From an uncultured Candidatus Saccharibacteria bacterium (GTDB taxonomy: Bacteria > Patescibacteriota > Saccharimonadia > Saccharimonadales > CAIOMD01), in NCBI GenBank assembly GCA_963716565.1, contig OY970318.1:580284-644283 (forward strand): 64,000 nucleotides of DNA, in the 5' to 3' direction. The position numbers were made by a program, and so were the translations under genes. Shown here in pieces: positions 2,507 to 8,813 of the stretch (position 1 is its first letter; every line of letters begins with the position of its first letter). The notes below the pieces were generated by a model. The model made no database searches. It saw nothing but the letters and a program-made list of their open reading frames with translations, and was not told the DNA's origin.

Positions 2507-2956
2507 ATGAGTACCGCCAAAAAAACATTTGTATTAATAGCGCTGATTGTGGCTATTATCTTGGTAGCCATCCTACTAAATAGCACCGGCTGCAAGGGTG
2601 ATAAATGCCAATCTGCCACCCCAGCGCCCGCTCCAACACCTACGACCCAACTAACCATAGCCCAACAAGTGACAGATACCGGTGGGACGCTAATCGATGT
2701 ACGCACGCCAGAAGAGTTTGCCGAATCTCATGCTAAAAATGCCATAAATCTGCCCCTAGTAGACATCCAGCATGGCATTTATCCAAACATTGCTAGAAAT
2801 CAGCCGATCTATGTATACTGTCGCACTGGTAGCCGGGCAAGACAGGCAGTAAGGATTCTAGAACAAAACGGGTTTATTAACACTACAGATATCGGTAGCT
2901 TGGCGGACTGGCAAAAACAGGGCGGCGAAGTGGTTAGTAGCGAGTTGCCAAGTTAG
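2507..2956 (+). CDS. membrane-anchored rhodanese-domain sulfurtransferase (paralog A)
   Basis: N-terminal TM helix, APAPTPT linker, and rhodanese core LIDVRTPEEF with active-site loop YCRTGSRA. Confidence 0.85.
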   Translation: MSTAKKTFVLIALIVAIILVAILLNSTGCKGDKCQSATPAPAPTPTTQLTIAQQVTDTGGTLIDVRTPEEFAESHAKNAINLPLVDIQHGIYPNIARNQPIYVYCRTGSRARQAVRILEQNGFINTTDIGSLADWQKQGGEVVSSELPS

Positions 2957-3019
2957 CAAGTTAGCAAGAAATCGAGTATTAAAACTTTTTTACTCGCCAA
3001 CTTGCTACTTGCAAACTAG
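2950..3019. repeat. long imperfect hairpin built from tandem AAGTTAGC units, overlapping the rhodanese stop codon
   Basis: The sequence is caagttagcaagttagcaag ... ccaacttgctacttgcaaac. Inner stem is cgagta (2973-2978)/tactcg (2991-2996). GCAAG (2964-2968) pairs with CTTGC (3001-3005). The TAG stop at 2954-2956 is part of the first repeat unit. Confidence 0.6.
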
Positions 3020-3108
3020 TAACTATTCCGTTGTAACGCCGTCAAAATCATGGTTATCGGCTTCGTAGCCATCTCTCATCCAATAAGCTCTGTTGATATT
3101 GAACGGTA

Positions 3109-3150
3109 TTGACACTATCTATTATGGGTATATACTCGTAATAGATAGTG
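3109..3150 (+). promoter_or_regulatory. sigma70-like promoter with a perfect 12-bp inverted-repeat operator bracketing the -10
   Basis: TTGACA (3109-3114), 16-nt spacer, TATACT (3131-3136). CACTATCTATTA (3113-3124) is the exact reverse complement of TAATAGATAGTG (3139-3150). Confidence 0.55.
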
Positions 3151-3192
3151 GTCGGTCTATCTAAATCCAACAATGAAAATAGGAGAATTATT

Positions 3193-3450
3193 ATGCCAAG
3201 ATTTGATGGTGCTGGCCCGCAAGGCCAAGGCCCAATGACTGGTCGCGGTATGGGCCCTTGTGGCCGTGGACGCGGTTTTAAGCGTGGCTGCCGCGGTTTT
3301 TACGGTTGCCCTTGGTGCGGAGCACAACCGGGCTTTTTATCTGACGAGGACGAGTTAAAAGCTTTAGAGCTAGATAAAAAATATCTGCAAGAGGAACTTA
3401 AGTCTCTAGACGAAGAAATCGCCAAGTTAAAAAAAGTCGAGAAAGAGTAA
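3193..3450 (+). CDS. DUF5320-like small protein (Gly/Arg/Cys-rich N-terminus, coiled-coil C-terminus)
   Basis: MPRFDGAGPQGQGPMTGRGMGPCGRGRG... followed by a heptad-rich tail. AGGAG lies at 3181-3185 ahead of ATG 3193, and the longer ORF-track start at 3148 lacks an SD. Confidence 0.7.
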   Translation: MPRFDGAGPQGQGPMTGRGMGPCGRGRGFKRGCRGFYGCPWCGAQPGFLSDEDELKALELDKKYLQEELKSLDEEIAKLKKVEKE

Positions 3451-3504
3451 AAGAAGGCGCGGTGCCCGGCCTATCTTTTGATAGGCTGGGTTGCCTTCTT
3501 TTAC
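3451..3504 (+). terminator. rho-independent terminator
   Basis: Nested stem: aagaaggc (3451-3458)/gccttctt (3493-3500) and cccggcctatc (3465-3475)/gataggctggg (3480-3490), followed by a T-rich run. Confidence 0.7.
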
Positions 3505-3542
3505 AAACTGTATTTTAAGCAAATTGTGAGAAAATTACTATT

Positions 3543-3953
3543 ATGTCCAGACCGCGTTCATGCAGACACATAGATTTTGACCCATCAGTTACCTATTTTA
3601 AGCCTCAGGGCGTACCGATGAGGTTTTTAGATATGGTTGAGTTATCGTTAGAAGAAGTCGAAGCTTTAAGATTAAAAAACATCGAAGACTTAGACCAAAC
3701 GCAGTGCGCTAAAAAGATGCACACTTCGCAAAGTACATTCCAGCGCATATTAACTTCGGCTTATAATAAGATTAGTTATGCTTTAATAGAAGGCAAGGCT
3801 ATTAAAATTATTAATAAAGAGGGGACGCATGAAAGTATTAAAGTTCGGAGCCATATGGTGCCTAGGATGCCTGGTAATGAAACCTCGCTGGGCCGAAATA
3901 GAACAAGAAAACACTTGGCTGAGCACCGAGTACCACGATTTCGACACCGATAA
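3543..3953 (+). CDS. DUF134 (UPF0251) putative DNA-binding protein
   Basis: N-terminal RPRSCRHIDFDPSVTYFKPQGVP signature and an HTH-like LSLEEVEALRLKNIEDLDQTQCAKKM segment. The last ~40 codons overlap the next gene and look like out-of-frame read-through. Confidence 0.7.
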   Translation: MSRPRSCRHIDFDPSVTYFKPQGVPMRFLDMVELSLEEVEALRLKNIEDLDQTQCAKKMHTSQSTFQRILTSAYNKISYALIEGKAIKIINKEGTHESIKVRSHMVPRMPGNETSLGRNRTRKHLAEHRVPRFRHR

Positions 3954-4098
3954 AGAGGCGGTTGATAAGTATGGCATCACCAATATTTTGCCGGTTTTTG
4001 TGTTTCTAGATAAAAATGGGCAAGAGTTTTTACGCCTAAATGGCGAGGTTTCTAAGAAAAAACTTGTTAAAATCTTAAACGAAAATAAGGATAAATAG
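3829..4098 (+). CDS. small thioredoxin-fold protein
   Basis: WCLGC (CxxC) redox motif near the N-terminus; 89 aa; GAGGGG lies upstream of the ATG. Confidence 0.75.
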   Translation: MKVLKFGAIWCLGCLVMKPRWAEIEQENTWLSTEYHDFDTDKEAVDKYGITNILPVFVFLDKNGQEFLRLNGEVSKKKLVKILNENKDK

Positions 4099-4101
4099 AC
4101 C

Positions 4102-5331
4102 ATTAAAGCCTTTCTTAAAATATTACTAATAGCTTTTATATTAAGTTTTGCGTGTTTTTTAAGTGGTTCTCCGGCAAAAGCTTCGGCCACTGTTAATGCC
4201 TACTTATTCCATGGCGAAACTTGCCCGCACTGCGCTAAAGAAAGAGCCTTTTTTGAAGATTATTTACCCTCTCACCCAGAAGTAAATTTGTATATGTACG
4301 AAGTATATAACAGCCCAGAAAACGCTGATTTGTTCCAGCGCGTCAGCGAAGCTATAAATGTTAAAGTAAGCGGTGTGCCGTTTTTGGTTATAGGGGACCA
4401 AGAAATTATTGGCTTCGGTGAATCCACTACGCCTAAAGAAATAGAAGACAGAATAGCTTATTGTTTGCAATATAGCTGCCCCGATTCGATAGCTGCAATC
4501 GTAAACCCTGTGGCTACTCCAACACCCACAGAAACTGAAAACCCCGTACTTACTCCAACCCCCGAACCACCTACTAACTCTAAAATAATCCACATACCTC
4601 TAATTGGCGATATTGATGCTTACCGGTATTCTTTGCCCTTGCTAACTGTACTTTTGGGCATTTTAGATGGCTTTAACCCCTGTGCCATGTGGACTCTATT
4701 GTTTTTAATTAGCTTACTGCTAGGCTTTAAAGACCGTAAAAAAATGTGGTTGCTTGGTGGAGCCTTTATATTCACTTCGGCTTTTGTTTATTTTGTATTT
4801 ATGGCCGCCTGGCTAAACGTATTTTTAATCGTCGACCAAGAAAGGTTACTGAACTTAATCATAGCGACCATAGCCTTAGTTGGCGGTGCGTACGGAATAA
4901 TGAGCTATTTTAAAAACAAAAACGGTGGCTGCGAGATAACCGGTAGCGAAAAAAGACAAGCCACGTTCGAGAAACTCAAAAACATCGTAAAACACAATAA
5001 TTTATGGATAGCTTTGGGTGGCATTATACTGCTGGCTTTTGTGGTCAATTTAGTCGAGCTGCTCTGTTCAACTGGGTTCCCAGCCGTTTACACCAAAGCT
5101 CTAACCGTCAGCAGCCTGCCTACTTGGCAATATTACGCTTATTTATTGCTCTATATTTTCTTCTTTATGCTAGATGATTTAATAATTTTTATAATTGCCA
5201 TGGTAACTCTCAAAATGACAGGCATATCTACTAAATATGGCCGTATATCTAAATTGGTAGGTGGCATAGCTATGATTATTATTGGCATCCTGTTAGCAAT
5301 TAAACCAGAGTGGCTCAAATTTGGAGGCTAA
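4102..5331 (+). CDS. exported thioredoxin-fold domain (CPHC) fused to a DsbD/CcdA-like membrane thiol-disulfide transporter; start codon non-canonical or unresolved
   Basis: The frame is open from the TAG at 4096-4098 and encodes a signal-like segment IKAFLKILLIAFILSFACFLSGSPAKASA plus GETCPHCAKE upstream of the first canonical start (TTG 4288). The membrane part has GFNPCAMW and ELLCSTGFP Cys motifs. AAGGA (4087-4091) sits 10 nt before ATT 4102. Confidence 0.65.
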   Translation: MKAFLKILLIAFILSFACFLSGSPAKASATVNAYLFHGETCPHCAKERAFFEDYLPSHPEVNLYMYEVYNSPENADLFQRVSEAINVKVSGVPFLVIGDQEIIGFGESTTPKEIEDRIAYCLQYSCPDSIAAIVNPVATPTPTETENPVLTPTPEPPTNSKIIHIPLIGDIDAYRYSLPLLTVLLGILDGFNPCAMWTLLFLISLLLGFKDRKKMWLLGGAFIFTSAFVYFVFMAAWLNVFLIVDQERLLNLIIATIALVGGAYGIMSYFKNKNGGCEITGSEKRQATFEKLKNIVKHNNLWIALGGIILLAFVVNLVELLCSTGFPAVYTKALTVSSLPTWQYYAYLLLYIFFFMLDDLIIFIIAMVTLKMTGISTKYGRISKLVGGIAMIIIGILLAIKPEWLKFGG

Positions 5332-5335
5332 CATT

Positions 5336-5782
5336 ATGTTTAAAAAGCTTATTTTGCCGGTTATAGTTGTTGGCGTAATTGCCGTAGGCATTGTTTTGGC
5401 TCTAAACAACGATTGCGAAGGCGAGCAATGCACGGTTGCCAATATCGCTGCTACGCCCACTCCAACGCCAACGGCTCAACAAACTATTGTCCAACAAGTT
5501 TCTGGCGGCCTAAGTGCTGGCGGATTATTGATTGATGTACGCACTCCAGAAGAATTTGCCGAAGCTTATGCTAAAGATGCCATTAACCTTGCTTTGACAG
5601 ATCTAGAAGCTGGCACGTATCCCGATATAGCCAAAGATACAGCTATTTATTTATACTGCCGCAGTGGCAATCGAGCCGAGCAAGCTAAAACAATTCTAGA
5701 ACAAGCTGGTTTTACCAACGCTATCAACATCGGTAGCTTAGCCGACTGGCAAGCCCAAGGCGGCGAAGTTATCAGCAGCTAA
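5336..5782 (+). CDS. membrane-anchored rhodanese-domain sulfurtransferase (paralog B)
   Basis: GGAGG (5322-5326) lies before ATG 5336. It has a TM helix, a TPTPTPT linker, LIDVRTPEEF and YCRSGNRA, and its C-terminus IGSLADWQAQGGEVISS is near-identical to paralog A. Confidence 0.85.
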   Translation: MFKKLILPVIVVGVIAVGIVLALNNDCEGEQCTVANIAATPTPTPTAQQTIVQQVSGGLSAGGLLIDVRTPEEFAEAYAKDAINLALTDLEAGTYPDIAKDTAIYLYCRSGNRAEQAKTILEQAGFTNAINIGSLADWQAQGGEVISS

Positions 5783-5789
5783 TGCTGCA

Positions 5790-5817
5790 GGAAATGGGAA
5801 TCAGGTAATAGGGAGCA
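5790..5817. repeat. G-type heptad array (GGAAATG GGAATCA GGTAATA GGGAGCA)
   Basis: Four in-phase 7-nt units starting 8 nt after the rhodanese stop. They are related to units at 43661-43688. Confidence 0.6.
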
Positions 5818-5842
5818 AAACGGCGATTATCTATTGGCCAAT

Positions 5843-5870
5843 GTCTATCATCTAGCGTCTAGCGTCTACT
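5843..5870. repeat. TCTA-type heptad array, 4 units (GTCTATC ATCTAGC GTCTAGC GTCTACT)
   Basis: Strict 7-nt period. The CTA of the last unit (5866-5868) is the TAG stop of the minus-strand cupin gene. Confidence 0.8.
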
Positions 5871-6264
5871 CCGTGGTGACGCCGTCAAAATCACCTTCAC
5901 TAGCTTCGGCGTCAGCTTTTGTAGCTCTGTGCTCGCCATCTTTGTGGTGAGCGGGTGAGTAAATTGTATAAAGTTTTAGCTCTTCAGTTGCAGAGGTGTT
6001 AACTACATTGTGCTGAGCGCCAGCCGGCACAACTACCGCCGAGCCATCAGCTACGGCATATTCGTTGCCATCAATGAATACCTTGCCCTGGCCTTTTTCG
6101 AAGCGAAAGAACTGATCGTTATCGGTATGAACTTCCATACCAATTTCTTCGTTGGGCTTTAACGACATCACGACTACTTGGCTGTGTTTGGCGGTATATA
6201 AAACTTTCCAAAAATTGGTATTTTCTAGTGTTGCTTGTTCAATGTTTTGACAAAATCCGCGCAT
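5866..6264 (-). CDS. cupin-domain protein
   Basis: Cupin motifs GMEVHTDNDQFFRFEKGQG and VVVPAGAQHNVVN. GGAGG lies before ATG 6264, and the ORF-track start 6276 is a TTG inside the SD. Confidence 0.8.
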   Translation of the reverse strand: MRGFCQNIEQATLENTNFWKVLYTAKHSQVVVMSLKPNEEIGMEVHTDNDQFFRFEKGQGKVFIDGNEYAVADGSAVVVPAGAQHNVVNTSATEELKLYTIYSPAHHKDGEHRATKADAEASEGDFDGVTTE

Positions 6265-6343
6265 TTTTACCTCCAATAATAAACTTTAATACTACTTACT
6301 ATACTAGCAGATTAATTAGAGTAAAACTCTCGCAAAAACTACT

Positions 6344-7078
6344 CTACTTGGATTTTTTGGCTGTCATAAGCTTTTCAACATCAGCTTTGGCTAGTTTTTT
6401 GGTACAGAAGAACCAGTCGTAGCATTGCATGTCTGCCTTATTGGCCATGCGTTCCTTAGCTACACCGCAAGAACCAGCCGTAGGCACAATAACATCGTCA
6501 CCCGGTTGCCAGTCGGCGGGGGTGGCAATGGCATAGGCATCAGCCGTCTGCAAACCAATTAATACCCTATAAATTTCGGCAAAGTTGCGACCCAAACTTA
6601 ATGGGTAATACAAAATGGTACGGATTACACCCTTAGGGTCAACAAAGAATACCGCCCTAACAGCCTTAGTATTACTTTCACCGGGCTGAATCATACCGTA
6701 TTTTTTGGCAACATCCATAGTAATGTTTTCTATAAGGGGGAACTTAACCTCGACATTTTTCATGCCTTTGTATTCGATTTTTTCTTTAATGGTTCTTAGC
6801 CAGGCAATGTGGCTATATAGGCCATCTACCGATAAGCCAACTAAATTACAGTTGGCATCATTAAATCTTTTCTCTTGGCTGGCAAAGGTCATGAATTCGC
6901 TCGTACAAACCGGCGTAAAATCGGCCGGGTGGCTAAACAAAATTACCCACTTGCCTTTGTAGTCGGCCGGGAAGTTAATTTCACCCTGCGTAGTAACAGC
7001 TTTAAATTCTGGTGCTTTTTCGCCAATACGTGGCATAGCGTAACATTCTTTTTGTTCTACTGGTTTTGGTTCGTCCAT
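6344..7078 (-). CDS. peroxiredoxin (Prx6/1-Cys-like subfamily with Cys-containing C-terminal extension)
   Basis: FSHPADFTPVCTSE peroxidatic-Cys motif; AAGGAG lies 7 nt before the ATG. Confidence 0.9.
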   Translation of the reverse strand: MDEPKPVEQKECYAMPRIGEKAPEFKAVTTQGEINFPADYKGKWVILFSHPADFTPVCTSEFMTFASQEKRFNDANCNLVGLSVDGLYSHIAWLRTIKEKIEYKGMKNVEVKFPLIENITMDVAKKYGMIQPGESNTKAVRAVFFVDPKGVIRTILYYPLSLGRNFAEIYRVLIGLQTADAYAIATPADWQPGDDVIVPTAGSCGVAKERMANKADMQCYDWFFCTKKLAKADVEKLMTAKKSK

Positions 7079-7096
7079 AGTTTTTCTCCTTATAAT

Positions 7097-7525
7097 TTAC
7101 TTCTTACACTTATTGCAAATGCCTTCTAAAACGACTCTTTTACGCACAATACGGCTAGCCCCAACCACTTCTTGCGGCAGTGGCAGAGCGTCGTATCGTA
7201 CACATTTAAAGTCCGTTATAGAACCACATTCAACGCAACGAAAATGATGATGGGGCAAAGTGCTAGCATCGTAGCGCTTTGGGTCGCCATGCCCCTCAAC
7301 AGATCCCAGCAAACCCTTTTGCACAAAAGTATTAAGCGTACGATTTACGGTATCAAATGATATAGCAGGGTACTGTTTCTTTAATTTTTGGTAAACGATT
7401 TCAGCGTTGGGATGGCTATAATCGTTGGCTAGCATTTCTAATACAGCCAGCCGCTGCGGAGTAACCCGTAAGCTAGCTGCCTGTAATTTATTAATCAAAT
7501 CTCCGACCATATTAATCATAGTCAT
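7097..7525 (-). CDS. Fur-family metalloregulator (PerR-like by context)
   Basis: RVTPQRLAVLEML winged helix, HHHFRCVECG and CNKCKK zinc motifs, adjacent to the peroxiredoxin. ATG 7525 is preferred over the TTG at 7558. Confidence 0.85.
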   Translation of the reverse strand: MTMINMVGDLINKLQAASLRVTPQRLAVLEMLANDYSHPNAEIVYQKLKKQYPAISFDTVNRTLNTFVQKGLLGSVEGHGDPKRYDASTLPHHHFRCVECGSITDFKCVRYDALPLPQEVVGASRIVRKRVVLEGICNKCKK

Positions 7526-7583
7526 TACTATATTGTAGCTATTCTTATTGTGCAACAAAAAAATAAAGCCCTAAGAGCTTTAT

Positions 7584-7752: not shown

Positions 7753-8556
7753 CTATCTTACCTTTTTGGTGAAAACCGGGCCTAAATTTACCGAATATCC
7801 CACTTCTTCAACCTTGCTAAGACCAAGTAGCTTGGCCATTTTGACTGTCGAAAGGCTATCGTTACTGGGTTGGCCAAAAATATTGATATCAAATGGCAGC
7901 TCTTCGTTCTTAACTATTGAGCCAGCACTTAGGCTGATTAATTCATGAAGTTTGGCTCTTTCGCTTTGAGGCAATAAACCCCCAGCGGCTACTTCCATCC
8001 AGGTGCTGGGCGGAGCAGAGCTTTCAAGTATTTCTATTACGTCTTTCATAGCCGAGAAGCCAGGGTGGGCCAACAGGCCACGATGAGAATCTAAAACCTT
8101 AGTCCAGGCGGGAATGATGCAAAAATCGGGTAACTCGGGGCCGTATATTGCATGGGCATCCAGCACCGTTACACCATCGGCTTCTTTTTTAAAATACCTC
8201 TGTTTGGCAAGCCAAACTTTGGGGGCAACAACAATAGACATTACCCCAACGGGGTTTTCGCCTTCGTAGACAGCAAAGCTCTGGCTTCGAACGTTTTCAG
8301 GGTCAAAGGCGATGCCTTCGGCCGTAGAAGCAATGCCAGGCCTTGATTCTAAAACTGCCCTGTAGTCTAGGCCAAGACCAGCGCCTTCTAGCTGAGATAT
8401 CACCTCACCATCGGTCACGGGCACAGCCATTCGGCCTTCTCCGAACCTAGTCATCAATACGGCATCTTCTATCCTGTTGGCTAGTTCTACGTCTCTAAAA
8501 ATAGCTTCGCCGTAATTTTCGGCACCAGAACCTGGATGTTTTTCTGGGGTTATCAT
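7753..8556 (-). CDS. hypothetical protein (267 aa)
   Basis: Long ORF with no competing frame and no motif I can name. Confidence 0.55.
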   Translation of the reverse strand: MITPEKHPGSGAENYGEAIFRDVELANRIEDAVLMTRFGEGRMAVPVTDGEVISQLEGAGLGLDYRAVLESRPGIASTAEGIAFDPENVRSQSFAVYEGENPVGVMSIVVAPKVWLAKQRYFKKEADGVTVLDAHAIYGPELPDFCIIPAWTKVLDSHRGLLAHPGFSAMKDVIEILESSAPPSTWMEVAAGGLLPQSERAKLHELISLSAGSIVKNEELPFDINIFGQPSNDSLSTVKMAKLLGLSKVEEVGYSVNLGPVFTKKVR

Positions 8557-8684: not shown

Positions 8685-8760
8685 TGGTACACCCGACAGG
8701 ATTCGAACCTACGACCTTCGGCTCCGCAAGCCGACGCTCTATCCAGCTGAGCTACGGGTG
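8685..8760 (-). tRNA. tRNA-Arg (anticodon GCG), CCA encoded
   Basis: GCACCCG acceptor, D-arm GCTCAGCTGGATAGAGC, anticodon loop TTGCGGA, T-loop GGTTCGAATCC. Confidence 0.8.
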
Positions 8761-8813
8761 CTCGTCAGCGCCAATACTATAACAGATTAGCGCCGTTTTT
8801 TCTACTTCTAGAA

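Follow-up and report, generated by a model that had tools for sequence, protein, structure and literature searches.

Previous work on Escherichia coli has described translation that begins at AUU just behind an upstream stop codon. At the thrS–infC junction (UAA GGU AUU), reporters attribute expression about equally to re-initiation and to de novo initiation, and in a standard context expression driven by AUU (and by UUG) lies 6- to 8-fold below that driven by AUG or GUG (PMC3592434). In the same species the best non-canonical starts—AUU, AUC, AUA and CUG—operate at 1–2% of AUG, and mass spectrometry detected N-terminal Met on proteins made from non-canonical starts, AUC included (bioRxiv 10.1101/063800). 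The second confirmed AUU-start case in E. coli is pcnB (PMC3592434; bioRxiv 10.1101/063800). Termination–reinitiation coupling has been reviewed repeatedly (PMC12548453, PMC6728339, PMC10666635), with no mention of AUU or AUA as near-cognate restart codons in the first of these reviews. Here we examine a junction of this kind in a 64,000-nucleotide (nt) stretch of the Saccharibacteria contig OY970318.1 (the window, on which all coordinates are given), where a gene referred to here as X (4102–5331) follows a small thioredoxin gene, trx. Sequence comparison indicates that X very probably starts at AUU 4102, rather than at the annotated TTG 4288 or by read-through of the trx stop codon TAG.

The geometry of this junction is identical to that of infC, with AUU 3 nt past the upstream stop and a Shine-Dalgarno (SD) motif in the 3′ end of the upstream gene. 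The probable start of X is thus an infC-like start behind an upstream stop; the original prediction was fair in calling such a start unusual, but the type was already known. The two genes differ in what the codon would serve: in infC the AUU is the sensor of IF3 autoregulation, whereas X encodes a membrane thiol-redox protein without a known link to IF3, and its ATH state (ATT, ATC or ATA) is limited to one Saccharibacteria-like clade, where ATT alternates with ATC, ATA and ATG. Like X, pcnB lies outside the translation-factor genes, and its AUU start holds expression low; to our knowledge, pcnB does not start directly behind an upstream stop codon. Coupled gene pairs are a third point of comparison. 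The trx–X junctions of outgroups are classic coupled pairs and the ATH clade keeps a spacing of 0–3 nt, but in the coupled pairs known to date the starts are canonical, whereas the ATH loci have near-cognate codons there. What is notable in X is the clade-wide conservation, the interchange of ATT, ATC and ATA, and the accompanying SD strengthening. A literature search found no paper that deals with the protein family of X, nor any on Patescibacteria that start genes at non-canonical codons.

Coding status of the stretch before TTG 4288

The features of the junction and of gene X are as follows.

3829–4098, plus strand: trx, a small cytoplasmic-type thioredoxin gene, 89 amino acids (aa), with WCLGC (Pfam Thioredoxin, E=3.1e-08)
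4087–4091, plus strand: Shine-Dalgarno motif AAGGA within the trx 3′ end (from sequence), 10-nt spacer to ATT
4096–4098, plus strand: trx stop codon TAG, judged an ordinary stop and not a recoding site
4102–4104, plus strand: ATT, proposed true start codon of X, 3 nt past the trx stop (junction TAG ACC ATT)
4102–5331, plus strand: gene X at full length, 409 aa (homologues span 100%; AlphaFold2 model)
4102–4182, plus strand: N-terminus (M)KAFLKILLIAFILSFACFLSGSPAKA, resembling a signal peptide in its Lys n-region, hydrophobic core and A-K-A (from sequence; homologues share the layout)
4222–4233, plus strand: CPHC redox motif, TGC CCG CAC TGC, of the exported thioredoxin-fold domain (from sequence; invariant in the alignment)
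4288–4290, plus strand: TTG, publicly annotated start, most likely an internal Leu codon (its 347-aa product is database entry P0001)
4630–5331, plus strand: membrane domain of X, six predicted helices, invariant Cys194, Cys277 and Cys322 (alignment, AlphaFold2 model)

After the trx TAG the frame reads ACC ATT AAA GCC and stays free of stops from 4099 to the TAA at 5329–5331, in the same frame as trx, encoding TIKAFLKILLIAFILSFACFLSGSPAKASATVNAYLFHGETCPHCAKERAFFEDY. The first in-frame ATG, GTG or TTG past the trx stop is TTG 4288. The original prediction had placed a signal or transmembrane segment and the CPHC motif ahead of any canonical start, in frame with trx across a single TAG; this held when the sequence was checked, as did the positions of AAGGA, ATT and TTG and the 10-nt spacing. 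Among the 70 open reading frames (ORFs) of a mechanically built window set, X alone stands out clearly: its frame stays open for 63 codons ahead of the first canonical start, which exceeds what chance would give. Only one other ORF (7753–8556, minus strand) has more than 20, and there the upstream translation is not coding-like; its long opening arises because a tRNA-Arg gene (8685–8761) fills the gap ahead of it. With this ORF accounted for and X alone left over among the 70 window ORFs, a genome-wide relaxation of start-codon use was rejected.

Comparison with homologues shows that the stretch before 4288 does encode protein. Translated from 4102, the 409-aa sequence matches >7,700 homologues, mostly from Patescibacteria and ~400–420 aa long; those with names come from Saccharibacteria, Paceibacterota and other Patescibacteria. 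Their N-termini run from M through a K/R-rich segment, a hydrophobic stretch and AxA to ...(Y/F)LFWGxGCPHCAKE. In an alignment of 16 sequences, ATT 4102 falls in the Met1 column and C41, P42, H43 and C44 are invariant; the part equivalent to 4183–4287 encodes peptides such as ASATVNAYLFHGETCPHCAK. Against six orthologues, the segment before 4288 has a proportion of non-synonymous differences (pN) of ~0.3 and of synonymous differences (pS) of 0.5–0.9. The segment is thus under purifying selection, as pN is low while synonymous sites are near saturation.

These data bear directly on the annotated start. If TTG 4288 were real, X would lack the signal peptide and CPHC, and the upstream opening would be the relic of a recently decayed N-terminus. 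Public gene calls do use this codon, but its product would start partway through the thioredoxin fold, the 62 codons upstream of it are free of stops with pN well below pS despite the near-saturated synonymous sites, and the CPHC that it omits is invariant. Furthermore, where gene callers settled on internal starts in orthologues, the positions are not homologous (an ATG within "AKM" in L001, various TTGs elsewhere). We regard TTG 4288 as a very unlikely start.

In a wider set of loci a canonical start is the rule. Specifically, 152 of the 164 related loci that were readable around CxxC begin at a canonical codon with a K/R n-region behind it, and only the window and the loci most closely related to it truly depart from this. 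The other flagged loci are contig-edge cases, L162, and L024, whose apparent Trx–X fusion is an artefact of extension across an in-frame TAG (junction TAG TTT ATG).

Probable near-cognate starts across the trx–X junctions of one clade

DNA of the closest relatives (57–73% identity) was found by exact-protein look-up, except for L003, which came from a genome collection; scans of GTDB and of metagenomes yielded relatives of 56% identity or less only. Twelve loci in independent assemblies from different samples share the ATH state, and their junctions are given below from the trx stop onward.

Window: TAG ACC ATT AAA
L001: TAA CA ATT AAA
L003: TAA CG ATT TTA AAA
L082: TAG CC ATT AAA
L083: TAA ATC AAA
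L084: TAG TT ATT AAA
L085: TAA CA ATA AAA
L166: TAG CC ATT AAA
L167: TAG TT ATT AAA
L168: TAA AG ATT AAT AAA
L169: TAA AC ATT AAA
L170: TAA A ATT AAA

In each, a stop is followed by 0–3 nt, an ATH codon (ATT in 10 of 12, ATC and ATA in one apiece) and AAA, AAT or TTA, with no canonical start ahead of the signal peptide. A Lys-rich n-region and a hydrophobic core come next, and the downstream ORFs are intact. The order DUF5320, DUF134, trx (88–89 aa), X is common to all ATH relatives. In the window the X frame opens one codon before ATT, and in L083 it opens with the ATC, which fixes the position of the start. Together with the Met1 alignment and a good SD at each of the 12 loci, this pattern lends strong comparative support to initiation at ATT 4102, one of the two routes that the original prediction had offered.

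The clade-wide pattern is difficult to reconcile with a sequencing or assembly error, or with a strain-specific ATG-to-ATT mutation that inactivates the gene. ATT is one base away from ATG, and more distant orthologues do have ATG here; yet ATH recurs in 12 independent assemblies, ATC and ATA among them, with ORFs intact and SDs strengthened. The close orthologues, which would carry a canonical start if the window held a local error, keep ATH instead, and the ATG of distant relatives at the same place marks ATH as derived and not as an error. An origin in error or recent mutation is thus extremely improbable.

The other route of the original prediction was read-through or recoding of TAG 4096–4098, yielding a single chain in which a transmembrane segment joins cytoplasmic Trx to the exported CPHC domain, with the membrane domain last. 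trx and X do share a frame in the window and in L083, and such a fusion would be functionally sensible, because the pairing is widespread (at 77 of 166 loci the ORF directly ahead of X is trx-like). On the contrary, X is out of frame with trx in the other 10 of the 12 ATH loci, and the stop itself is not conserved—a point on which the original prediction had proposed to compare orthologues—being TAA at 7 and TAG at 5 of the trx ends. Since frames differ in 10 of 12 loci and 7 of 12 stops are TAA, read-through is rejected as the general mechanism behind X. TAG is also a common terminator in the window (27 of 70 ORFs), no CUA anticodon occurs among the window's four tRNA genes (three Ser and one Arg), and no natural in-frame Trx–X fusion was found among the 166 loci. 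An Rfam search of the window returned tRNAs only. Low-level leaky read-through may occur in the window itself but is not needed to explain the data, and as the source of X read-through seems highly improbable.

At nine loci, 2 nt separate the trx stop from X, which puts X in the +2/−1 frame; such an arrangement could also invite a Trx–X fusion if ribosomes hopped over the stop or underwent programmed frameshifting. As the gap is 0, 1, 2 or 3 nt depending on the locus, one and the same shift or hop is excluded. The junctions show neither an evident slippery heptamer nor a conserved stimulatory element, and an SD with a near-cognate start covers every locus; a fusion of this kind therefore has next to no likelihood.

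In a neighbour-joining tree, the 12 ATH loci fall in one clade of 15 together with three ATG members, and all outgroups have ATG. Typical ATG-type junctions are classic coupled pairs (ATGA, TAATG, TAA nn ATG AAA), and in outgroups the stop is followed, after −4 to +5 nt, by ATG AAA at the same place. Because outgroups carry ATG at this junction, ATH is a derived and retained state; it is also old, as pS between clade members is near saturation. The simplest history on these sequences would be one ATG-to-ATT change, with later changes from ATT to ATC and from ATT to ATA and some returns to ATG.

The near-cognate codon co-occurs with a strong SD. All 12 ATH loci carry AAGGA or GGGAG within the final 16 nt of trx, compared with 8 of the 49 loci of ATG type (Fisher p=7e-8), though this test ignores phylogeny and, as the 12 loci are one clade, is confounded by shared ancestry. 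The motif mostly arises through the synonymous use of AAG GAT in place of AAA GAT, and its strengthening fits compensation for a weak start.

The confounding by ancestry is the first of several points that count against initiation at AUU 4102. The N-terminus and initiation site of X are placed by sequence comparison. ATH is not obligatory, as three clade members (L002, L011 and L091) have ATG. AUU is weak in E. coli, so the output of X could be very low. Finally, an SD-like motif occurs at only about a third of window ORF starts, so the organism may depend on SD to a limited extent; where such a motif is present the spacing is 5–12 nt, and the 10 nt at X lie within this range.

Under initiation at AUU 4102, the initiator tRNA would read this codon as Met. 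The AAGGA in the last trx codons and a start only 3 nt past the stop may recruit ribosomes; with both so close to the AUU, ribosomes could reach it by de novo binding or, more likely in part, by re-initiation on finishing trx. The weak start may keep the membrane protein low relative to the soluble thioredoxin, and sensitivity of this start to IF3 is possible. The product would be a CPHC domain of thioredoxin fold, exported or anchored, that is linked to a membrane domain with six helices and several cysteines.

A further proposal, which we hold only tentatively and consider less likely than its converse, is that the AUH start is a selected device and no tolerated defect. Here a near-cognate restart codon and a strengthened SD in the coupled trx–X pair would set a low X:Trx ratio, or a response to IF3 or ribosome status, and would have been kept over long divergence with AUU, AUC and AUA interchanging freely. 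If true, infC-like AUU junctions would have a second natural class, conserved in evolution and found in genes other than those of translation factors, and the re-initiating ribosomes of these bacteria would accept AUH efficiently. Irrespective of purpose, the locus adds a well-supported comparative case of a conserved AUU/AUC/AUA start outside infC, and its relatives, whose junctions range over ATG, ATT, ATC and ATA and whose SDs may be weak or strong, offer a natural series for probing the tolerance of re-initiation for near-cognate codons.

Domains of protein X and the likeness to DsbD

The predicted layout of X comprises a signal peptide, a thioredoxin-fold CPHC domain, a Pro/Thr linker and a six-helix, cysteine-bearing membrane domain. 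The original prediction had called the protein a Trx–DsbD fusion, of which the thioredoxin fold of the N-terminal domain stands and the DsbD label failed every homology test. In a PDB profile search the N-terminal domain matches DsbA, glutaredoxin and thioredoxin chains, the best match being a DsbA with FCPHCAH, and Foldseek aligns it with many thioredoxins at a probability of 1.00; together with the invariant CPHC, these matches confirm a thioredoxin fold with CxxC at the N-terminus of its helix 1. NCBIfam gave weak glutaredoxin-like matches only.

No Pfam or NCBIfam model matched the membrane domain of X. DsbD/DsbD_2 (PF02683, PF13386) had no match at E<=10 in the window protein or in any of 16 family members. 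An hhalign comparison with E. coli DsbD aligned only the thioredoxin-like parts, at a probability of 4%, and left the membrane domain unmatched. Foldseek against PDB found thioredoxin folds only and no solved membrane protein, a weak test of fold given a model pLDDT of 68. Membership of the DsbD/CcdA families was rejected because Pfam, NCBIfam, hhalign, the PDB profile search and Foldseek all gave no support to it for the membrane domain.

The resemblance to DsbD/CcdA is architectural only. It consists of an exported domain with CxxC and a thioredoxin fold, six helices in the membrane domain, an adjacent gene for a cytoplasmic thioredoxin, and invariant cysteines in predicted helices 1 (GFNPC, Cys194) and 4 (ELxCS, Cys322) of the six; in the DsbD/CcdA transporters, two essential cysteines sit in transmembrane helices 1 and 4 of a 3+3 bundle. 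X differs from these families in lacking a profile or membrane-fold match and in its CPHC, which is the motif of the oxidant DsbA. A third invariant membrane-domain cysteine, Cys277, lies in a basic loop before helix 4, and two more (121 and 126) follow the thioredoxin fold. The tight and widespread pairing with trx suggests a relay from Trx through the membrane to the exported domain, as does the conserved Cys in a loop for which the positive-inside rule predicts a cytoplasmic location; an oxidative role would fit the CPHC motif equally.

Several longer homologues of X (529–572 aa: P0029, P0037, P0051, P0111 and P0112) carry extra Redoxin, Glutaredoxin or Thioredoxin Pfam matches, which suggests that additional thioredoxin-fold domains may be fused to X in some lineages. 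The family as a whole is a very large set of cysteine-bearing membrane proteins without a Pfam model, paired with thioredoxin in Patescibacteria.

Annotation and gene neighbourhood

The public record of X in the window consists of the 347-aa product from TTG 4288 only, and the full-length protein is absent from a collection of 15 billion proteins. Gene callers picked an internal TTG or ATG in every close relative retrieved, and about 17 of the 21 closest database relatives (the P0002–P0021 group) are stored with truncated N-termini; all 10 truncated relatives whose DNA was checked have an ATH start. Because such entries lack the export signal, and some the catalytic CPHC as well, function predictions made from them are wrong. 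The finding thus corrects a systematic, clade-wide N-terminal mis-annotation.

The trx gene appears to have been missed as well. The exact window protein is absent from the same 15-billion-protein collection, trx is uncalled in L001, and it is probably unannotated in the public record of the window. Relatives of the preceding DUF134 gene end ATT AAT AAA TAG, and the window (3819–3821) and L001 have GAG instead. As the ancestral TAG stop is now GAG, the DUF134 ORF is 45 codons longer and shares 125 nt with trx, which is read in a different frame, and this extended ORF likely out-competed trx in gene calling at both loci.

The region from 2507 to 7558 is a redox/stress gene cluster, whose order is conserved in L001 and in part in L085, L166 and L167. 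The genes around trx and X are listed here.

1297–2499: 400-aa membrane-protein ORF, directly upstream of the first rhodanese gene (weak DUF4013/LMBR1-like Pfam matches)
2507–2956: rhodanese-domain gene with a hydrophobic N-terminus, first of two in the cluster
3148–3450: DUF5320 (label from syntenic L001)
3543–3953, plus strand: DUF134 gene (Pfam PF02001, E=3.6e-21)
5336–5782, plus strand: rhodanese-domain gene with a hydrophobic N-terminus, in an operon-like string with X (Pfam Rhodanese, E=1.8e-13; L001 synteny)
5866–6276, minus strand: ORF standing where L001 has its Cupin_2 gene (label by synteny with L001 and L085)
6344–7078, minus strand: peroxiredoxin-like ORF (label by synteny with L001 and L085)
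7097–7558, minus strand: Fur-family-like ORF (label by synteny with L001 and L085)

At the position in L001 that corresponds to the 400-aa ORF there is a 417-aa gene without a Pfam match on record, and the gene that follows it is a 169-aa gene on the minus strand, not a rhodanese.

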